Below are positions 12,235 through 61,550 of a stretch of 64,000 nucleotides of DNA, in pieces. How positions within the stretch are numbered: position 1 is the stretch's first letter; each line of letters starts with the position of its first letter. Both the position numbers and the translations under genes were made by a program. A model generated the notes under the pieces. The model ran no database searches and was not told the origin of the DNA. It worked only from the letters and a program-made list of their open reading frames with translations. Location of the stretch: positions 2,276 through 66,275 of the forward strand of contig JAGXAG010000002.1 of the NCBI GenBank assembly GCA_018971685.1. The letters run 5' to 3'. This stretch comes from Patescibacteria group bacterium (GTDB lineage Bacteria; Patescibacteriota; Minisyncoccia; Phycocordibacterales; PALSA-1337).

Positions 12235-12280
12235 ATGTATTGTGTTGTTCAAGTTTAACTTATTTGATATCATAACTGAC

Positions 12281-13471
12281 ATGAAAAGTCAAGGAAAAAA
12301 GGTTTTTGTCGGCCTTTCGGGCGGCGTGGACAGCGCGGTTTCGGCGGCTTTGCTGAAAAAGATGGGTTACGAAGTCACGGGTGTTTTCATCAAAGTATGG
12401 CAGCCGGATTGGATCGAATGCAGTTGGCGGGAAGAGCGGCGGGACGCGATGAGAGCGGCGGCGCATTTGGGCATACCGTTCGTCACGCTCGACTTGGATC
12501 GAGAATATAAACAGGGCGTGATCGATTATATGCTTGCGGAATACGAGCAAGGCCGGACACCGAATCCGGATGTAATGTGCAATCGCAAGGTCAAATTTGG
12601 GGCTTTTTACGATTGGGCGATGTTAAATGGCGCAGATTTCGTGGCGACTGGTCATTATGCGCGGATACGCATACCCGGGATCGAAAAACCTCCGACCGTC
12701 GAGCCGGCGACCAGTGTTTCCCGGCGCGAGCGCAAGCTGGCCGGGACGGAAACACTTCGTCGCGACGAGGAGGGAGAGGGTTTTTCACTGATGGCTGGAC
12801 GCGATCAAAATAAAGACCAGTCGTATTTCCTGTGGACGCTAAAACAAGAACAATTGCCGCGTATATTATTTCCGGTCGGAGACTTAACCAAGCCGGAAGT
12901 CAGGAAGTTGGCGGAAAAATTAGGGCTGCCAAATGCCGGCAAAAAAGACAGCCAGGGATTGTGTTTTATCGGCAAAATCGACCTTAAGGAATTTTTGGCT
13001 CATTATGTCAAAACCGAGCGGGGGAATGTGCTGGACGAATCGGGGGGAATTATCGGTACGCATCCCGGAGCTTTATTCTTTACGATGGGTGAAAGACACG
13101 GGTTTACGGTCGACAAGAAGACGCGAGATGCAGACAAACTTTATGTCATCGATAAGGACATGGATCAAAACACGATAACAGTGGCGGCTCGCGCGCGCGG
13201 TAACTTCCCGAGCGCCGGTGACATGAGTCGGACTGTTCGCATAAGCCAAGTCAATTGGATAATGGGCAGTGCCCCGGAAGGATATATTGGCGTAAAAACA
13301 TTGCAAGCGCGCGGACGGTATAGGCAAACATTGGAAAGCGTGATCATAAAATCCATAGGATTGACTGAAGCTGCAGTGGAATTTGAAAAGCCTCAAAAGA
13401 CCGCGACATCCGGGCAGTCATTGGTCATTTATGATGGCGATGAATGTCTGGGCGGCGGCGTGATCGACTAA
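12281..13471 (+). CDS. mnmA: tRNA-specific 2-thiouridylase
   Basis: PP-loop VFVGLSGGVDSAVSAALL. Conserved MnmA core with catalytic Cys residues. Start at MKSQGKK. Confidence 0.9.
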   Translation: MKSQGKKVFVGLSGGVDSAVSAALLKKMGYEVTGVFIKVWQPDWIECSWREERRDAMRAAAHLGIPFVTLDLDREYKQGVIDYMLAEYEQGRTPNPDVMCNRKVKFGAFYDWAMLNGADFVATGHYARIRIPGIEKPPTVEPATSVSRRERKLAGTETLRRDEEGEGFSLMAGRDQNKDQSYFLWTLKQEQLPRILFPVGDLTKPEVRKLAEKLGLPNAGKKDSQGLCFIGKIDLKEFLAHYVKTERGNVLDESGGIIGTHPGALFFTMGERHGFTVDKKTRDADKLYVIDKDMDQNTITVAARARGNFPSAGDMSRTVRISQVNWIMGSAPEGYIGVKTLQARGRYRQTLESVIIKSIGLTEAAVEFEKPQKTATSGQSLVIYDGDECLGGGVID

Positions 13472-13529
13472 CGAGGTTGGTCCTCGAGGACTAACTTCGT
13501 TAGTTTTGCGTGTGTTATACTGTTCCACA

Positions 13530-22059: not shown

Positions 22060-22653
22060 ATGAATAACATTTTTGTTAAACGTTTTTTTGTCGGAATCGT
22101 GTTGATTGCCGTCGGCGCGATCGCCGGCTTTTTATTGGCCGACAAAGGCCTAATTTCACCCACCGGTTTTGCGGACGGATACAATCAACAGGCGCGCGTC
22201 TCCGCGGCGCAGGCGGCCAAAATAGATCCCGCGATACTTTATCCGGTTACAGAGGTGGTTGATGGTGACACCTTCAAGGTGAAAATAGGCGGTAAGGAGA
22301 TTACTGTACGCTTGCTTGGCATCAATACTCCGGAAGTTGTGGACCCAAGAAAACCGGTAGAATGTTTCGGGCCGGAGGCCTCTGCCGAGGCCAAGACGCT
22401 CCTTTCCGACGGGAAAGTCCGCTTAGAATTGAATCCCAACCGCGAGAAGACGGACTATTACAGCCGCCTGCTCGCTTATGCTTTTTTGCCCGACGGCACA
22501 TTCCTCAATAAAGTTTTAGTTCAAGAAGGTTATGCCCGCGAATACACCGTCGGCACGCCGTATTCGTACCAATCCGATTTCAAAGCCGCCGAAGCGGCGG
22601 CAAAGGCGGCCAGCAAAGGGCTTTGGGGCAAATGCGGTGTTGAGGCGAAGTGA
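22060..22653 (+). CDS. Thermonuclease (staphylococcal nuclease-like, SNase fold), membrane-anchored or secreted
   Basis: N-terminal TM/signal. VVDGDTFKV...VRLLGINTPE...ECFGPEASAEAK...YYSRLLAYAF...GYAREY matches SNase family conserved blocks. Confidence 0.8.
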   Translation: MNNIFVKRFFVGIVLIAVGAIAGFLLADKGLISPTGFADGYNQQARVSAAQAAKIDPAILYPVTEVVDGDTFKVKIGGKEITVRLLGINTPEVVDPRKPVECFGPEASAEAKTLLSDGKVRLELNPNREKTDYYSRLLAYAFLPDGTFLNKVLVQEGYAREYTVGTPYSYQSDFKAAEAAAKAASKGLWGKCGVEAK

Positions 22654-22849
22654 GGGCACAATGTTTGTTTCAAGCCGGCAACCACCTGTCTGAGCGCAGT
22701 ATAAATTTCTTGGCAAAAGGCTGCCGAGATGGGAATTGCTACGGCGCGAAGCGTATGCGGAGCGCCGAGCAATTCCGCAAGCCTCTTGCCTAGAAATTTA
22801 ACGGAGCGAGTCTTGCCGGCTTGAAACAAACATTGTGCCCTCACTTCGC
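22645..22849. repeat. 205-bp near-perfect palindromic element (36-bp perfect terminal inverted repeats plus nested imperfect palindromes) between convergent genes
   Basis: Left arm GCGAAGTGAGGGCACAATGTTTGTTTCAAGCCGGCA (22645-22680) is the exact reverse complement of 22814-22849. The interior has further paired blocks (AAATTTCTTGGCAA / TTGCCTAGAAATTT, GGAATTGCT / AGCAATTCC, CGGCGC / GCGCCG) around a centre near 22748. Confidence 0.7.
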
Positions 22850-23764
22850 TCTGAGCGCCAAATAAATATCCTCGAGCGCCTTGACCGCATCTCCGGCCGC
22901 GATATTATTCTGGTGATATAGCCCGTCCGTGCAATCGCCTGCAGCCCAAACGCCCGCCACGGAAGTCCGCTGATTCTTAGAGTCGACTTTGATATGGCCG
23001 TAATGATCCAATTCCACCAAATCTTTTACGAATGAAGTTGTTGGTATCGAGCCGATTTCCACGAATATTCCCGAGACTTTCAATTCCGTGTCTTTGCTGG
23101 TTATCTTGTCGGTATAAACAAAGCCCTCGACGAATCTGTCGCCTTTGACTTCTTTCGGCACCACATTGGTCAAAAGTTTGAAATGCGAATTTTTGGACAC
23201 CGCTTCGATCGTGCCCGGATCGGCCCGGAATTTCTCGCTGCGGTTAACCAGCGTCACCGATTTGCAGTATGCCAGCAGTTGCGCCGCGCTCTCGAAAGCC
23301 GCATTGCCGCCGCCAACCACCACGACATCTTTGTCCTTGAATAATGGGCCGTCGCATGACGCGCAATAAGTGAGCCCTTTGTGTTCCAGCCGATCCGCGC
23401 CGGGCACATCGAGTTTTCTCCTATGACTGCCGGATGATATGAGAACGGATTTTGTCTGGTAAGTATTTTTATCGGTGATTATCGATAATTCACCGTTTTT
23501 CTTTTCAACCTTTTCACAACTTTCGCCAACATGAACATCAACAAATTCTCCGGCATATGCCCTCAAATGCTTTTCCAAACTATCGGCCAATTCCATGCCG
23601 CTTAACTTTATTGTTCCTATCCAATTTTCTATGCCTTCTGAAACCGTGCTCTGGCTGTTCCAATCCTTGGTAATGAACATTGTTTTCAATTGCTTCCTTG
23701 CCGCATAAACTCCCGCCGCCGCTCCCGCCGGTCCGCCGCCTATTATGGTTAGATCGTATATCAT
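22841..23764 (-). CDS. trxB: Thioredoxin-disulfide reductase
   Basis: FAD motif IIGGGPAGAAAG. Redox-active CASCDG (CxxC). Second dinucleotide motif VVGGGNAAFE. 307 aa. Confidence 0.9.
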   Translation of the reverse strand: MIYDLTIIGGGPAGAAAGVYAARKQLKTMFITKDWNSQSTVSEGIENWIGTIKLSGMELADSLEKHLRAYAGEFVDVHVGESCEKVEKKNGELSIITDKNTYQTKSVLISSGSHRRKLDVPGADRLEHKGLTYCASCDGPLFKDKDVVVVGGGNAAFESAAQLLAYCKSVTLVNRSEKFRADPGTIEAVSKNSHFKLLTNVVPKEVKGDRFVEGFVYTDKITSKDTELKVSGIFVEIGSIPTTSFVKDLVELDHYGHIKVDSKNQRTSVAGVWAAGDCTDGLYHQNNIAAGDAVKALEDIYLALRAK

Positions 23765-23824: not shown

Positions 23825-26800
23825 TCACAAACTTTTCATCCTTTCAATAACAAACCCTTTTTCACCGTTTCTGGAATTGACCGTCGCCTTGATTGCTAGA
23901 CACCTGTCGGGGGCGATCAATTCTCGGAACTCTTTGTAGACGCGGGGAAAGACCACCGCTTCCGCTTCGGCGGAAAAGTCCGCGATCGTGACAAATGCCA
24001 TCGTTTCGTTATTCTTGGTCTGGATGGTGCGGACTTCATTCACGATAATGCCCAGAATAACCGAATCGCCATCCCTCTTGTTTTCCAGCGCTTTCTTTAT
24101 GTCCATGTCTTTCTTCGCGATCACTTCGCGGTATTTTTCCAACGGATGTCCCGAAATATAGAGTCCTAACAGCTCTTTTTCCCAGCCCAATTTTTCCTTC
24201 ATTTCCGCTTTTGGTGCCGCGTTCAACTTCAAGACCGGAACGCTTGACGAATCCGCCATCAATCCGAACAAAGAATCTTGGCTCGAATCCCGCTTGCCGC
24301 TCTCTTTATTGTATTCCAGGAGCAATTCAATGTTTGCCATCATCACGCCCCTATCTTCGCCGAAGCAATCCAACGCACCCGCCTTGATCAGCGATTCCAG
24401 CGACTTTTTGTTGATGTTCCTGTCTTTGACTCGATCCAGGAAATCAGCCAGTGACCGGTATTTCCCCCCGCGTTTTCGCTCGTCAATTATGGCCGTCGAA
24501 ACGCCCTGCCCGAAGTTTTTGATGGTGACCAGTCCAAAACGGATACGGTAATTCCGCGGAACATCGAGATGAGACCTCTCGCCATCGCGCGAGGACTCAC
24601 CTCGATGTTCCGTGTCGCATGAGGCAGTATTTGCTTTGATTACTGTGAACTGACTGAAACTTTCATTCACATCCGGCGGCAAAACCGGAATACCCAATCG
24701 TTTGCATTCTGCGATCGTCTCTGCAACCTTCTCCGTATCGCCCGACTCCGATGACAGCACCGCCGACAAATATATTTCCGGATAATGCGCTTTCAAATAT
24801 GCCGTCAGATACGCCACCCAGCCGTATGACACCGAATGCGCCTTGTTGAAAGCGTAAGCCGCGAACGGCTCGATCCACTTCCAGACCTGCTCCGCCTTCT
24901 TCTTGCTCCACTTGCTGTGCTCAATACAGCCGTTGATAAAGCGGTCTTTTTGTTTCGCCATCTCTTCCGGGATCTTTTTGCCCACTGCTTTGCGGAATTT
25001 GTCCACTTCCGACCAGCTGTAGCCCGCCAGATCATGCGCCATGATCAGGAGGTCGTCTTGGTAGACCAAAATGCCGTAAGTCTTCTTTAATATTTTTTCC
25101 AGCGAAGGATCTAGGTATTTGACCAGTTTCGTATCATGCTTGCGCGCGATATAGTCCGGAATGAATTGGATCGGGCCCGGGCGATACAGCGCCACCATGG
25201 CGTTGATATCGTGGATCGAAGACGGCCTCAGGTCTTTCAGGAACCGCGTCATGCCGTCGCCGTTCAGTTGGAACAGATCGGCTGTCTCGCCGCGCGCCAG
25301 CATTTCGAAAGTCTGTTTATCGTCGACCGGAATCTTGTCTATTTCGATTTCGGCGCCGTCGATCTTTTTTATCCGGTCGATGGTATCAGCGATGATCGTC
25401 AAGTTCTTGAGCCCGAGGAAATCGAATTTCAAAAGGCCGGCATCTTCGATCGAATACATGTCGTATTGCGTGATGATTTTGCCTTCGCCTTTTGGATCGA
25501 ATTGAAGCGGCGTATATTCGATGATGGGCGTAGGCGCCATGACGACGCCGGCGGCATGTACGCCGATGTGCCGCGCGCAGCCTTCGATCTTTCTCGCCAT
25601 GTCAACGATTCTTTTTGCTTCAATGTCTTTGTCGTACAGATCTTTCAATTCCGGCACGGTTTCGAAAGCGCGTTCGATCGTCATCGGGAATCCTTGCGAG
25701 CCCATGGGAATGAGTTTGGCGATTTTGTCGCCGACTTCGAACGGGAATCCCATCGCGCGCGCGGCATCTCTGACCGATCCGCGCGCCATCATAGTGCCGA
25801 AAGTGCCTATCTGCGCCACTTTGTCGGCGCCGTATTTCTTCCGGGCGTATTCGATGACTTCGTCCCGCCGGTTGTCGGCGTAATCCATGTCGATATCCGG
25901 CGGCGACGGCCTGTCCGGATTCAAGAACCTTTCGAAAGGTATTTCATATTCGATCGGATTGACATTGGTAATGCCCGCCAAATAGGTGACAAGCGAGCCG
26001 GAAACCGATCCTCTGATGTTGCTCAGGATGCCGTTTTCCCTGGAAAACCTTAATAAATCCGCCACTACCAAGAAATAAGGCGCATAACCCTTCTTTTTGA
26101 TGACACCAAGTTCGTATTCGGCGCGTTCGAGCATCTCCTTTGACTGTGGCACATTGCGCCGGCCAAAACCATCGAAAACCAGATATCTTAATTCGTCGTC
26201 GTAGCTCCGTCCGCTTTCCACTTTATAATCCGGAAAAACCCATTTGCCCAGATCCAATTCAAGACTGCACAAATCGGCGACTTTCGCGGTATTGGCGAGC
26301 GCTTCAGGCAAGTCCTTGAATAATTCCGCAGCCCGCTCGGACGAAATGAATGAAAAATCTTCTTCATCGTCTGTCGATATTCTGTCGGAAGCGTCGGAAT
26401 GCGAATTGACCAGCAACATGGTATTGCGCGCCTCACGGTCTTCTTGGTTCAAATAGTACACATCATGCGCCGCCAAAATCGGGATCTTTTCGTTTTGGGA
26501 AAACTCGACCAGTTTCTTCATATTGGCTTTATGGCCCTCAATTTCCGGATGAGCGGTTATTTCCATGTACAAATGCTCGCCGAATATCTTTTTGTAATGC
26601 GCCGCAAATTCTTTAGCCTTGTCATCTGTGCGGCCTTTGAGCGATTGGGCAATGTCGCTCGAAGATGACGGCAAGATCGCGATCAGTCCGTCGCGGTATT
26701 TCTCCATCAATTCGCGATCGATTCTCGGCTTGTAATAAAATCCTTCGAGGTGCGAGTCGGTAACCAGCTTCAGCAGGTTCTTGTAGCCGATTTCATTCCG

Positions 26801-27079
26801 GGCCAGAAGAACCAGTCGCGAGCGGCGGTTATCCAACCCCGCGTCTTTGTCGCGCCTCGTCCGCGCCGCCACATAAAAGTCCACGCCTATGATCGGTTTC
26901 AACTCTTTCTTCTTGCACTCCTTGTAAAACTCGATCGCGCCGTAGAGATTGCCGTTATCAGTAAGCGCTAGCGATGCCATACCGTGTTTCTTGGCAGTGC
27001 CTACCAGTTCGTCTATCTTCGGCAAAGCGTTCAACAGAGAATAGTGCGAATGTGTATGGAGATGGGTGAATCGCGGCAT
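23825..27079 (-). CDS. dnaE: DNA polymerase III alpha subunit
   Basis: N-terminal PHP domain FTHLHTHSHYSLLNA. Conserved polymerase core. 1084 aa. Confidence 0.95.
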   Translation of the reverse strand: MPRFTHLHTHSHYSLLNALPKIDELVGTAKKHGMASLALTDNGNLYGAIEFYKECKKKELKPIIGVDFYVAARTRRDKDAGLDNRRSRLVLLARNEIGYKNLLKLVTDSHLEGFYYKPRIDRELMEKYRDGLIAILPSSSSDIAQSLKGRTDDKAKEFAAHYKKIFGEHLYMEITAHPEIEGHKANMKKLVEFSQNEKIPILAAHDVYYLNQEDREARNTMLLVNSHSDASDRISTDDEEDFSFISSERAAELFKDLPEALANTAKVADLCSLELDLGKWVFPDYKVESGRSYDDELRYLVFDGFGRRNVPQSKEMLERAEYELGVIKKKGYAPYFLVVADLLRFSRENGILSNIRGSVSGSLVTYLAGITNVNPIEYEIPFERFLNPDRPSPPDIDMDYADNRRDEVIEYARKKYGADKVAQIGTFGTMMARGSVRDAARAMGFPFEVGDKIAKLIPMGSQGFPMTIERAFETVPELKDLYDKDIEAKRIVDMARKIEGCARHIGVHAAGVVMAPTPIIEYTPLQFDPKGEGKIITQYDMYSIEDAGLLKFDFLGLKNLTIIADTIDRIKKIDGAEIEIDKIPVDDKQTFEMLARGETADLFQLNGDGMTRFLKDLRPSSIHDINAMVALYRPGPIQFIPDYIARKHDTKLVKYLDPSLEKILKKTYGILVYQDDLLIMAHDLAGYSWSEVDKFRKAVGKKIPEEMAKQKDRFINGCIEHSKWSKKKAEQVWKWIEPFAAYAFNKAHSVSYGWVAYLTAYLKAHYPEIYLSAVLSSESGDTEKVAETIAECKRLGIPVLPPDVNESFSQFTVIKANTASCDTEHRGESSRDGERSHLDVPRNYRIRFGLVTIKNFGQGVSTAIIDERKRGGKYRSLADFLDRVKDRNINKKSLESLIKAGALDCFGEDRGVMMANIELLLEYNKESGKRDSSQDSLFGLMADSSSVPVLKLNAAPKAEMKEKLGWEKELLGLYISGHPLEKYREVIAKKDMDIKKALENKRDGDSVILGIIVNEVRTIQTKNNETMAFVTIADFSAEAEAVVFPRVYKEFRELIAPDRCLAIKATVNSRNGEKGFVIERMKSL

Positions 27080-32860: not shown

Positions 32861-35248
32861 ATGTATCTGAAATCACTCGAACTATCAGGCTTCAAATCAT
32901 TCGCCAAGAAATCGGCACTGTCTTTCAATTCTGCCATAACCGGCATAGTGGGCCCGAACGGCAGCGGCAAAAGTAATGTCGCAGAGGCTTTCAGATTTGT
33001 CCTTGGCGAGCAATCCATCAAGTCGCTTCGCGGCAAAAGAGGCGAAGACCTCATCTGGAACGGCGGCGGCGACAACGCTTCCGGCGGCGGCAGAGCCAAT
33101 CGCGCAGGGGTAAAATTGACCTTTGATAATTCAAGGCAGATGTTTCCTGCCATAGACTTTGACGAAGTAACCGTCGAAAGGGTAGTCCATCGCGACAATT
33201 CCAACGAATATTTACTGAACGGCAGCCAAGTCAGGCTGAAAGACATTGTCGAATTGTTAGCCGCGGCGCATATCGGCGCCACCGGACATCACATCATTTC
33301 CCAGGGCGAAGCCGACAGAATATTGTCCGCATCCATCCGCGAGCGCCGGGAGATGATCGAGGACGCGCTCGGCCTCAAGATCTACCAGTGGAAGAAGCTC
33401 GAAAGCGTCCGCAAGCTCGAAAGAACCGAGGAGAATATGAAACAAGTCGAGTCGCTCCGCCGGGAAATCGCGCCGCATCTCAAATTCTTGAAGAAGCAAG
33501 TCGAAAAAGTCGAAAAAGCCGAGCAGATGCGCGTCGAACTCGTCACACTGTACAAAGAATATTTTGCCGCCGAAGATCATTACATAAAAACCGAAAAAGA
33601 AAGATTAAGCCGTGAATTGGCCGCGCCCAAGACGGAATCGGCCGGCCTCGAACGGGATTTGGAGAAAGCCAAGGGCATATTGTCCGCGTCGGAAAACAAA
33701 GACCACAAGAGCGAAGAAGTCATTTCGATCGAGAATAGATTGGCGACTATTCGCCGTGAAGTCGATGCTGCCACCCGCGAGTTGGGGGTGATCGAAGGCG
33801 AGATAAGGGCTGACGAGAGAGTCATCGAAAAAGAGCGATCCAGGATGAAGGACGAGGAGGCGAGGATGGTCTATCTGAAAGATGTCGAGGAAGTTGTCAG
33901 GCGCATCGAAGGATTCAATATATTTGACGACGCTAAAAAGCTTTGGAGCGAAGTCGTGAATGTTCTTCGTGAATTTATCGGCAAGCACCATTCCGTCGCC
34001 GATTCGGCCATGATCGACGACGCCGAGAAGGAAATCGTCGGCTTGAAAAACAGCAAGAGCAGGTTGGAGAAGATGCTTGCAGAGCTAAATCGCGCCGAGA
34101 CTAAGCTGAACCGCGAATACGAAGAGCTCAAGCGCCAGATCGAAAAAGAAAAAGATACCAATCGCGACGCCGAGAAGGATGTTTTTCGGATCATCGCGCG
34201 CCAAAATGAAGTGCGCGGACTGATCTCCGCTTTGACGAATCAGCTGGATACTGTTTCGCGAGACGAAGAAGCGTTCAAACGGGAGCTTGGCGAAGCGGCG
34301 ATAATAGTCGGCAGGGAGGCGACGGAGTATTCGGACTTCGCCCCACCCGCCACGAAGGAATCCGATGGACGCCTCGGAGGCCGCGAAGGCGGCCGAGAGC
34401 CAGCCGCGCCTAGAGCAGGCGGCGACGCCGTGTCCCGAGGGTCCTTCGTGGCGGGTGTGGCGAAGTCCGACCGCGAGACCCAATCATTCCGACTTAAGCA
34501 AATCGAAAAGATCAAGATCCGTCTGGAAGACGCAGGCGGTTCTGGTGGCGCGGAAGTCATGAAGGAATACAGGGAGACTGAGGAGCGCAATACATTCCTG
34601 GGCAAAGAACTCGAAGATCTGGAAAAAGCCAAAGCCGAACTTTTGAAACTGATTGCTGAGCTCGATACGCGGATCGATTACGAATTCAAAAGCGGCATTA
34701 TGAAAATAAATGCCGAATTCCAGAAATTCTTTGCACTCATGTTCGGCGGCGGCAAAGCCGAACTGACCGTTATCAAAGAACCAAAGCGCCGGAAAAAGAG
34801 CGATGCCGAGGAATTAGCCGAAGTTTTGAGAAATCCGGAAGAGGCGGTTGACGGCGATCTGTCGGAACAGCCGGAAGAAGAGGCGGAAGGCCCCGAAGGC
34901 CTCGAAGTCACTGTTAGTTTGCCGCGGAAAAAAGTCAAAGGCCTGGTCATGCTTTCGGGTGGCGAGCGCGCGCTCACTTCTATTGCTCTCCTGTTTGCCG
35001 TCTCGCAAGTCAACCCGCCGCCGTTCATCATTCTGGACGAGACGGACGCGGCGCTCGATGAAGCCAACAGCCGCAAGTACGGCGACATGATCGAAGACTT
35101 GTCCAAGCGCTCCCAGCTCATCCTGATCACCCACAACCGCGAGACCATGTCCAGGGCCGGCGTGCTCTATGGCATCACCATGTCTTCCGACGGCGCTTCG
35201 CGTTTGCTTTCGATCGCGTTCGAGGAGGCCGTCAAGGTGGCGAAATAA
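32861..35248 (+). CDS. smc: Chromosome segregation protein SMC, shortened (about 795 aa; hinge region replaced by a low-complexity segment)
   Basis: N-terminal Walker A GPNGSGKSNV. Q-loop region HIISQGEADRIL. Long coiled-coil. C-terminal signature LSGGERALTSIALLFA. Walker B FIILDETDAALD. Start chosen at MYLKSLELSGFKSF (AAGGA RBS 6 nt upstream). Confidence 0.7.
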   Translation: MYLKSLELSGFKSFAKKSALSFNSAITGIVGPNGSGKSNVAEAFRFVLGEQSIKSLRGKRGEDLIWNGGGDNASGGGRANRAGVKLTFDNSRQMFPAIDFDEVTVERVVHRDNSNEYLLNGSQVRLKDIVELLAAAHIGATGHHIISQGEADRILSASIRERREMIEDALGLKIYQWKKLESVRKLERTEENMKQVESLRREIAPHLKFLKKQVEKVEKAEQMRVELVTLYKEYFAAEDHYIKTEKERLSRELAAPKTESAGLERDLEKAKGILSASENKDHKSEEVISIENRLATIRREVDAATRELGVIEGEIRADERVIEKERSRMKDEEARMVYLKDVEEVVRRIEGFNIFDDAKKLWSEVVNVLREFIGKHHSVADSAMIDDAEKEIVGLKNSKSRLEKMLAELNRAETKLNREYEELKRQIEKEKDTNRDAEKDVFRIIARQNEVRGLISALTNQLDTVSRDEEAFKRELGEAAIIVGREATEYSDFAPPATKESDGRLGGREGGREPAAPRAGGDAVSRGSFVAGVAKSDRETQSFRLKQIEKIKIRLEDAGGSGGAEVMKEYRETEERNTFLGKELEDLEKAKAELLKLIAELDTRIDYEFKSGIMKINAEFQKFFALMFGGGKAELTVIKEPKRRKKSDAEELAEVLRNPEEAVDGDLSEQPEEEAEGPEGLEVTVSLPRKKVKGLVMLSGGERALTSIALLFAVSQVNPPPFIILDETDAALDEANSRKYGDMIEDLSKRSQLILITHNRETMSRAGVLYGITMSSDGASRLLSIAFEEAVKVAK

Positions 35249-60533: not shown

Positions 60534-61550
60534 ATGACCACCCAATATGTGAATAACGCCATCTTCTGGATAGAGCTGGAAAAGATAAGCCCGAACCCAT
60601 ATCAGCCGCGCCGAGAATTCGACGAAGCCGCCATGAAGAGTTTGGCAGAGTCTATACGAATGTATGGTGTGCTTCAGCCGTTGGTTGTGACCAGGAAGGA
60701 AGTATTCAATGAAACCGGCGGTATGTCAGTCGAATACGAACTCATCTCTGGCGAGCGCAGGTTGCGCGCCGCCAAACTGGCTGGATTGGCGCAAGTGCCG
60801 GCTTTGATACGAAACGGCGAAGACGGCGCCAGGGAAAAGCTTGAGATTGCCATTATCGAAAACCTTCAAAGAGAAGACCTGAATGCAGTCGAGCGCGCGC
60901 GCTCGTTCAACCGGTTGATCAAAGAATTCGGCCTAAAGCAGACTCAAGTCGCCGACAAGGTCGGCAAGAGCCGCGAATATGTCGCCAATACATTGCGCAT
61001 ACTCGCTTTGCCGGACGACATATTGACCGCGCTCGAGGAAGGCAAAATATCCGAAGGGCACACCAGGCCGCTTCTGATGCTTTCGGAAAAACCGGAAGAA
61101 CAGGCGGTTTTATTCAAGGAAATAATGGCCAAAAAGCTCTCGGTGCGTGAAGCCGAGGCCGCCGCGAGAAGGGTGGCGACCGAGCGCGTCCGCAATAAGG
61201 AGAAGTATCTCGATCCGGCCGTTCTTGAATTGGAAAAGAAGCTTAATGAAGCGCTCGGCACGCGCGTCAAAGTCGATCGCACCAACGAAACTGGCGGCAT
61301 TATTAAAATTGACTTCTTCTCGACAGATGATCTACGCATTCTACTGTCGCGTTTGAACGGTGAAACGGCAGGCGCCTTGCCGACTGCAGCCGGTACTCCC
61401 ACCGAGAACCTGATCGGCGGGGTGCGAAGCGATTATCGAGGGGAGTCGGCGGCGGAGGAGGGTGAGGCGCCTGCCGATGACAGGTCTACACGAGAGATCA
61501 AAGAAGAAGAGAATGAAGATATTTATTCTCTGAAGAATTTTTCGGTCTGA
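60534..61550 (+). CDS. parB: ParB/Spo0J-family partition / nucleoid-binding protein (no adjacent parA)
   Basis: ParB box I/II (LQPLVV...YELISGERRLRAAKLAG) and HTH (KQTQVADKVGKSREYVANTLR). Acidic low-complexity C-terminus. Confidence 0.85.
   Translation: MTTQYVNNAIFWIELEKISPNPYQPRREFDEAAMKSLAESIRMYGVLQPLVVTRKEVFNETGGMSVEYELISGERRLRAAKLAGLAQVPALIRNGEDGAREKLEIAIIENLQREDLNAVERARSFNRLIKEFGLKQTQVADKVGKSREYVANTLRILALPDDILTALEEGKISEGHTRPLLMLSEKPEEQAVLFKEIMAKKLSVREAEAAARRVATERVRNKEKYLDPAVLELEKKLNEALGTRVKVDRTNETGGIIKIDFFSTDDLRILLSRLNGETAGALPTAAGTPTENLIGGVRSDYRGESAAEEGEAPADDRSTREIKEEENEDIYSLKNFSV

Follow-up and report, generated by a model that had tools for sequence, protein, structure and literature searches.

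Where does a long and nearly perfect palindrome come from when it lies between two convergent genes and both of them end inside it, and what might it do there? This question is raised by a 205-nt element (positions 22645-22849) in a stretch of 64,000 nt from an uncultured Patescibacteria group bacterium (assembly GCA_018971685.1, contig JAGXAG010000002.1), which was analyzed over its whole length and is referred to below as the window. On the left of the element is a thermonuclease gene of the SNase family (22060-22653, + strand; Pfam SNase, E = 1.7e-21), which is the last gene of a long run of + strand genes. On the right is trxB (22841-23764, - strand; Pfam Pyr_redox_2, E = 7e-45), which encodes a thioredoxin-reductase-like FAD oxidoreductase and is located downstream of dnaE. 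The reading that we favor, with moderate confidence, is that a local template switch extended an older hairpin at this site and that the enlarged structure has a likely role as a stop or stabilizer at the ends of both genes. Taken in this way, the element is a new and unusually large instance of things already known, i.e. a quasi-palindrome/template-switch product and a bidirectional gene-end hairpin, and does not represent a new kind of system.

Architecture and authenticity of the palindrome

The two inverted-repeat arms of the element (22645-22681 and 22813-22849) are each 37 nt long, 100% complementary to each other and separated by 131 nt. The original prediction had correctly recognized the arms as perfect inverted repeats, but gave their length as 36 bp and the distance between them as about 133 bp. 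The sequence directly outside and directly inside the arms is not complementary, and each arm therefore has a sharp boundary at either end. A 28-nt core of the arm was found at just two sites in the window, one in each arm, whereas none was expected from shuffled sequences (n = 100). When both strands were folded, as had been proposed with the prediction, a single long hairpin was predicted for each, with a free energy of -143.7 kcal/mol for the + strand and -136.7 kcal/mol for the - strand (z = -14.7 and -16.1, respectively), and none of 200 shuffled sequences was equally stable. Folded as single-stranded DNA, the palindrome reached -84.4 kcal/mol (z = -16.3). The GC content of the element showed no compositional anomaly.

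The interior between the arms (22682-22812, 131 nt) is itself an imperfect nested palindrome, and its description as a set of nested imperfect palindromes holds. A middle stem (22702-22800), whose own arms (22702-22722 and 22780-22800) are paired at 19 of 21 positions (90%), surrounds an apical stem-loop at about 22731-22776 (GGGAATTGC.CGGCGC ... GCGCCG.GCAATTCC). Between the perfect outer arms and this inner stem lies an asymmetric internal loop, with 20 nt on the left side (22682-22701) and 12 nt on the right (22801-22812). Folded alone, the interior gave a strong hairpin on both strands (-58.2 kcal/mol, z = -5.0 on the + strand; -60.3 kcal/mol, z = -6.0 on the - strand), and it may be read as the older part of the structure. 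Two small open reading frames (ORFs) within the element (47 aa on the + strand and 104 aa on the - strand) were judged to be spurious, because their common start, MRAQCLFQAG, arises only from the palindromy.

Both flanking genes finish within the arms. The nuclease ORF ends with GTT GAG GCG AAG TGA (VEAK*; tail GVEAK*) inside the left arm, and the trxB ORF ends with AGA GCG AAG TGA (RAK*; tail LRAK*) inside the right arm. Since GCG-AAG-TGA closes both ORFs within the arms, the outer 9 nt of each arm correspond to the last two codons and the stop codon of the adjacent gene, which confirms that nuclease and trxB draw these codons from the two arms. In the left arm these 9 nt are GCGAAGTGA, and the remaining 28 nt belong to the 3' untranslated region (UTR) of the nuclease gene; in the right arm they are TCACTTCGC, the reverse complement of the Ala-Lys-stop of trxB.

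Contigs of several other assemblies stop inside the element, as would be seen if the palindrome were an inverted chimera or a false contig join made during assembly or library preparation. However, the breaks are located exactly where they should be for a true 37-nt inverted repeat. In three Logan assemblies (k = 31), contigs end exactly 30 nt into each arm, because a de Bruijn graph with k = 31 must branch where both arms are present. In GCA_028870795.1, where the palindrome breaks the assembly, the nuclease and trxB are found on separate contigs (JAGWOV010000017 and JAGWOV010000004, respectively). The nuclease contig crosses the left arm and the whole interior, reaching 22822, and the trxB contig crosses the right arm, reaching 22787. 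Thus, these two GenBank contigs span the unique interior, and they overlap each other by 36 nt that are identical to the window. In other assemblies, contigs of 50-200 kb contain both genes together, and the adjacency of nuclease and trxB is kept in 24 relatives. The palindrome is therefore genuine, and an artefact is extremely improbable. Short-read assemblies of the same organism (contig ends L001-L005) also split precisely at the palindrome. In practical terms, such palindromes cause assemblies built from short reads of these organisms to break at exactly this junction.

Gene ends in relatives and origin of the arms

The convergent order of nuclease (+) and trxB-dnaE (-) was conserved in 24 Patescibacteria loci, in which the gap between nuclease and trxB ranged from -44 to +679 nt and was no longer than 30 nt in 13 of them. 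The same order was seen, from gene calls only, on one more JGI contig. The nearest relatives showed amino-acid identities of 65% for the nuclease and 78% for TrxB. Of the 120 closest homologues of TrxB, 74 end with AK, the usual tail being YLFL(K/R)AK, and 76 have a length of 307 aa, which is both the mode and the length of the window protein; the YLALRAK tail of the window TrxB was unique in this set. The closest TrxB relative (L093, 78% identity) ends with AGG GCG AAG TAA, agreeing with the outer bases of the arm at 8 of 9 positions; this locus has neither a nuclease gene nor a palindrome downstream of trxB. The conserved AK tail, the modal length and the end of this closest relative argue that the Ala-Lys-stop of trxB in the right arm is native and ancestral and was not supplied by an insertion. 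The proposal that the element had inserted into both 3' ends is thus not supported on the trxB side, where AK in 74 of 120 homologues, the modal 307 aa and the GCG AAG TAA of L093 all speak for an ancestral end.

The comparison of orthologous 3' ends gave a different result for the nuclease. Beyond the conserved GLWGKC motif its tail comprises 2 to 87 residues that are variable in sequence, and an AK C-terminus was present in only four of 120 homologues. Since the AK-stop appears to be ancestral in trxB and the nuclease tail is variable, the simplest reading would be a duplication from the right arm, of which the left arm is the copy.

Hairpins at this junction were also observed in relatives. 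In one of them (L006), the 107-nt spacer contains a hairpin that is about 84 nt long (z = -4.4). In another (L010), an 85-nt nested hairpin (L010:1916-2000, z = -7.9) is built from four alternating copies of GCGGGAAT; its left arm encodes the last 11 codons and the stop codon of a nuclease that exceeds the usual tail length by 8 aa, and a second, separate hairpin (L010:2000-2030) covers the trxB stop. In a third (L027), a hairpin begins at the nuclease stop codon. All three are unrelated in sequence to the window element, and the interior of the element had no homology to the spacers of relatives beyond words of 11-12 nt (GTTGAGGCGAA in L006 and AGCGAAGTGAGG in L027). Thus, hairpins overlapping the stop codons at gene ends, some of which encode the variable tail of the nuclease, recur at this junction and evolve fast.

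We assume that an imperfect hairpin of approximately 100-130 nt was already present in the spacer of this lineage, where the two converging units meet (the + strand run that the nuclease closes, and dnaE-trxB on the - strand); relatives that have a spacer at this junction have hairpins of this kind. A recent replication template switch at this quasi-palindrome, either as an inverted duplication or as a homogenization of the arms, would have transferred a reverse-complemented copy of the final 37 nt at the trxB end (the Ala-Lys-stop with 28 nt of the 3' UTR) to the nuclease side. The copy would have lengthened the stem by 37 perfect base pairs and replaced a short and unconstrained C-terminal tail of the nuclease, which would now end in the copied AK-stop. 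Both the event and its direction are suggested by the pattern at the locus: perfect outer arms, a decayed but still strong interior hairpin and sharp boundaries form together the pattern of one event that extends an older stem, and the run of exact reverse complement covers all 37 of 37 nt. A recent origin and co-evolution with the gene ends, which had been offered in the original prediction, both fit this evidence.

Template switching can create or perfect long stems in a single step (PMC8794818; PMC5941160). The element resembles the quasi-palindrome and template-switch mutations (TSMs) described by the Ripley model and by Loytynoja and Goldman (PMC8794818, Monttinen and Loytynoja 2022; PMC5941160) in that a perfect reverse-complementary copy adjoins its source, that an imperfect inverted repeat would have become a perfect stem apparently in one step, and that several nearby bases, here those of the nuclease tail, would have been altered together. 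On the other hand, the events on record are mostly short, whereas the element is long, with 37 nt and a 131-nt spacer; it spans the ends of two genes, and the internal loop between the new and the old stem does not suit the simplest fold-back geometry; its membership in this class is suggested by these likenesses. If our reading is true, one template switch made a 37-bp perfect stem, enlarged a gene-end hairpin and rewrote the C-terminus of a protein, and the locus would illustrate the co-evolution of hairpins and protein tails in very compact genomes.

A further trace of local copying may be present in the left side of the interior. Positions 22689-22709 represent a degenerate direct copy of trxB coding sequence, with 17 of 21 nt identical to 22850-22870 (codons DIYLALR), which adjoin the right arm on its outer side. 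The local alignment of the two segments had a score of 22 and a shuffle p value of about 0.007, which is uncorrected for four comparisons. This segment and the trxB end share the derived GCG-CTC-AGA, where the closest orthologue has TTC-TTG-AGG, with 6 of 9 nt being different. This likeness hints at an exchange of sequence between the two sites, and hence at repeated local copying.

Possible role and alternative explanations

As a result of the proposed extension, the mRNAs of both genes would end in the same very stable hairpin, each with its own stop codon in the base of the stem. In Escherichia coli, stem-loops between convergent genes position bidirectional termination via collisions of RNA polymerases (bioRxiv 10.1101/2022.10.23.513370). 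By analogy, the most likely role of the element would be that of a hairpin-dependent bidirectional transcription stop that works without a U-tract, or of an insulator that positions such collisions; additionally, it could protect the 3' ends of both transcripts. Like the E. coli bidirectional terminators, it is a single stem-loop between converging units that forms a hairpin on both strands, and a stable stem containing G+C is present at both gene ends, starting within the last two codons of each gene. It differs from them by its much greater size (a nested structure of 205 nt and about -140 kcal/mol), by the lack of A/T-tract flanks and by the two stop codons in the base of its stem; moreover, it belongs to a member of the Patescibacteria whose termination signals are uncharacterized. 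Intrinsic terminators without a U-tract ('I-shaped') have been described in Actinobacteria, although it is debated whether such hairpins cause termination. These resemble the element in being stable gene-end hairpins without a U-trail, although the element is much larger in scale.

Several observations weigh against the reading proposed here. There is no U-tract after the stem on either strand, the + strand continuing with TCTGAGCGCC and the - strand with CTCAACACCG, and a terminator scan gave no call at the element. Thus, the long bidirectional terminator suggested in the original prediction is a reasonable candidate in its general form, but the element is not a canonical intrinsic terminator, which was rejected for the lack of a T-run on both strands. 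In addition, in 13 of 24 relatives the gap does not exceed 30 nt and holds no hairpin, which indicates that a strong stop is not generally needed at this junction. With regard to origin, the relatives lack the palindrome and have the ancestral trxB side, but at 65% and 78% protein identity even the nearest are too distant for a reconstruction of the ancestral DNA, so that the event is read from the pattern. The unpaired internal loop of 20 and 12 nt keeps the perfect arms apart from the older stem, and a simple fold-back-and-extend geometry gives no explanation for this arrangement. Finally, the nuclease of L027, a distant relative (53% nuclease identity) that lacks a long palindrome and whose trxB ends differently, ends with the same GCGAAGTGAGG; here (L027:1040-1060) a stretch of 12 nt (AGCGAAGTGAGG), with the stop codon and two bases behind it, is the same as at the start of the window arm. 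This match could be a coincidence or could reflect an ancestral nuclease end, and in the latter case the AK-stop of the nuclease could be native as well and have acted only as microhomology.

Some of these points also bear on a neutral explanation, by which the same local inverted duplication took place but its 37-bp extension is a recent accident without function, which owes its persistence solely to a dispensable nuclease tail and to trxB being left unchanged. Perfect arms would then point to too little time for decay and not to selection; more than half of the relatives (13 of 24) have no room for a junction hairpin, the interior alone already matches the hairpins of relatives in stability, and a U-tract is missing on both strands. 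Against this, five independent assemblies or runs were identical in sequence and showed neither decay nor polymorphism, though a single recent population would look alike. We consider this explanation somewhat unlikely. A different origin is assumed if the element is a non-autonomous mobile element, similar to the miniature transposable elements with inverted repeats known as MITEs, that was inserted between the two genes with 37-bp terminal inverted repeats and now provides both stop codons. Its size of 205 bp, the 37-nt perfect terminal repeats around a short non-coding unit and the hairpin-forming interior are indeed those of prokaryotic MITEs (PMC10969869), and further long palindromes occur in the window, some of them in frame within genes. 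However, these palindromes are unrelated to the element in sequence, and the GC content of the element is ordinary. GTDB representative genomes, JGI metagenomes and IMG/VR were probed for exact matches to a 28-mer and a 22-mer of the arm and to a 23-mer from the middle of the element, plasmids and phages were searched with blastn, and the window and 92 related loci with blastn-short; about 71 kb of the source genome were covered (the 64-kb window and 7.5 kb beyond it). No second copy of the arm or the element was found in the window, in the adjacent 7.5 kb, in the 92 related loci or in any of these collections. No direct repeat adjoins the arms that could be a target-site duplication (the flanks are ...GGTGTTGAG / arm and arm / TCTGAGCGCC; TGAG recurs, but offset by 2 nt). 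Moreover, no sensible empty site can be restored, as the Ala-Lys-stop of the right arm can be aligned, codon by codon, to relatives without the element. These outer 9 nt of the 'terminal repeat' are the conserved native end of trxB, and a precise excision would truncate the gene. With neither a second copy in the sequence searched, nor a target-site duplication, nor an anomalous composition, the MITE-like candidate of the original prediction is improbable, and the element would be a local structure rather than one that was imported or inserted.

The likeness to known mobile families extends to position. Prokaryotic MITEs and palindromic repeats (Correia, ERIC, RUP, REP/BIME and the Rickettsia palindromic elements, RPEs; PMC10969869) share with the element their size range, terminal inverted repeats and hairpin-forming transcripts, as well as a location at the 3' ends of genes, where such elements can change the ends of ORFs. 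They differ from it in that the element is present in a single copy in all sequence searched and lacks a target-site duplication, and in that one of its 'terminal repeats' is native, conserved coding sequence. Several other classes of element were considered and rejected. An invertible segment (inverton) is not supported, the orientation being the same in the two assemblies that enter the interior, with no recombinase gene adjacent and both flanking genes pointing inward. The boundaries do not have the RYYYAAC ... GTTRRRY core sites of an integron attC site (GTTGAGG fails at the final Y), and the genes on both sides keep their synteny across 24 relatives and are not cassettes of an integron array. 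A CRISPR repeat was ruled out on sequence. As for a replication terminus or a dif-like site, GC skew changes its sign at the element, but this change tracks the gene strand and reverts at about 30 kb. To our knowledge, no transposase or family related to the element has been described. The third candidate of the original prediction was a structured non-coding RNA gene between the two genes (e.g. a long hairpin RNA similar to 6S RNA, or an antisense RNA). The very stable, long and imperfect hairpin (about 130-205 nt) with internal loops and a weak promoter-like match within the element (- strand, 22727-22698) would agree with such a gene. Nevertheless, its interior is not conserved in the spacers of relatives, whose junction hairpins are unrelated, and a perfect duplex of 37 bp is atypical for functional RNAs; as RNA, such a duplex would be a substrate of RNase III. 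Searches against Rfam 15 at gathering thresholds gave only tRNAs in the window and none at the element, and in this region at E values up to 10 only two noise matches appeared, outside the coding sequence or overlapping it. A non-coding RNA is thus very improbable.

Other palindromes in the window

The window contained seven long inverted repeats (arms of at least 18 nt) vs 0.55 expected from shuffled sequences, and a similar density was observed in relatives. No significant sequence relatedness was detected among the three long palindromes of the window.

Several of the long inverted repeats are located in frame within conserved genes of the window, and three such genes are described here. 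An SMC-like ORF (32861-35248, + strand) carries a G+C-rich palindrome of 140-148 nt (34327-34474) in frame, with 29-nt arms that are paired at 28 of 29 positions (-99 kcal/mol). It encodes about 38-40 residues in a variable linker, which 10 of the 12 homologues nearest to it (70-72% identity) do not have. Such an in-frame palindromic insertion is similar to the RPEs of Rickettsia, and we know of no sequence family for it. In dnaE (23825-27079, - strand), a 60-nt hairpin (24555-24614) with 28-nt arms, 24 of which are paired, is located in frame in a variable insert between FTVIK and YRIRFGL. The length of the DnaE insert at this spot varies from almost none in L010 to about 37 aa in L006, and in L011 the insert (L011:4682-4860) is itself a 179-nt palindrome with 41-nt arms. 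In parB (60534-61550, + strand), a 111-nt palindrome (61366-61476, -66 kcal/mol) lies in the C-terminal tail beyond the ParB_C dimerization domain, which ends at residue 274.

It is conceivable, but in our view rather unlikely, that the palindrome between nuclease and trxB is one product of a process acting across this lineage of Patescibacteria, which would repeatedly build palindromes of 60-200 bp at gene ends and, in frame, within variable linkers of essential genes. With the same reservation, the palindromes of the SMC-like gene, DnaE and ParB in the window and of DnaE in L011 might be further examples. Such a process could consist of unrecognized, sequence-diverse palindromic insertions akin to the RPEs, or of overactive template switching in repair-poor genomes. 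If it exists, it would be a significant source of new protein segments and gene-end structures, and in-frame palindromic DNA within conserved genes of this lineage may merit a systematic survey.

Finally, two co-directional genes have between them a near-perfect palindrome of 38 nt (13467-13504) with TTTTG after it. The 5' arm of this palindrome begins at the stop codon of the ORF at 12242-13471, and it looks like an ordinary terminator that overlaps a stop codon.

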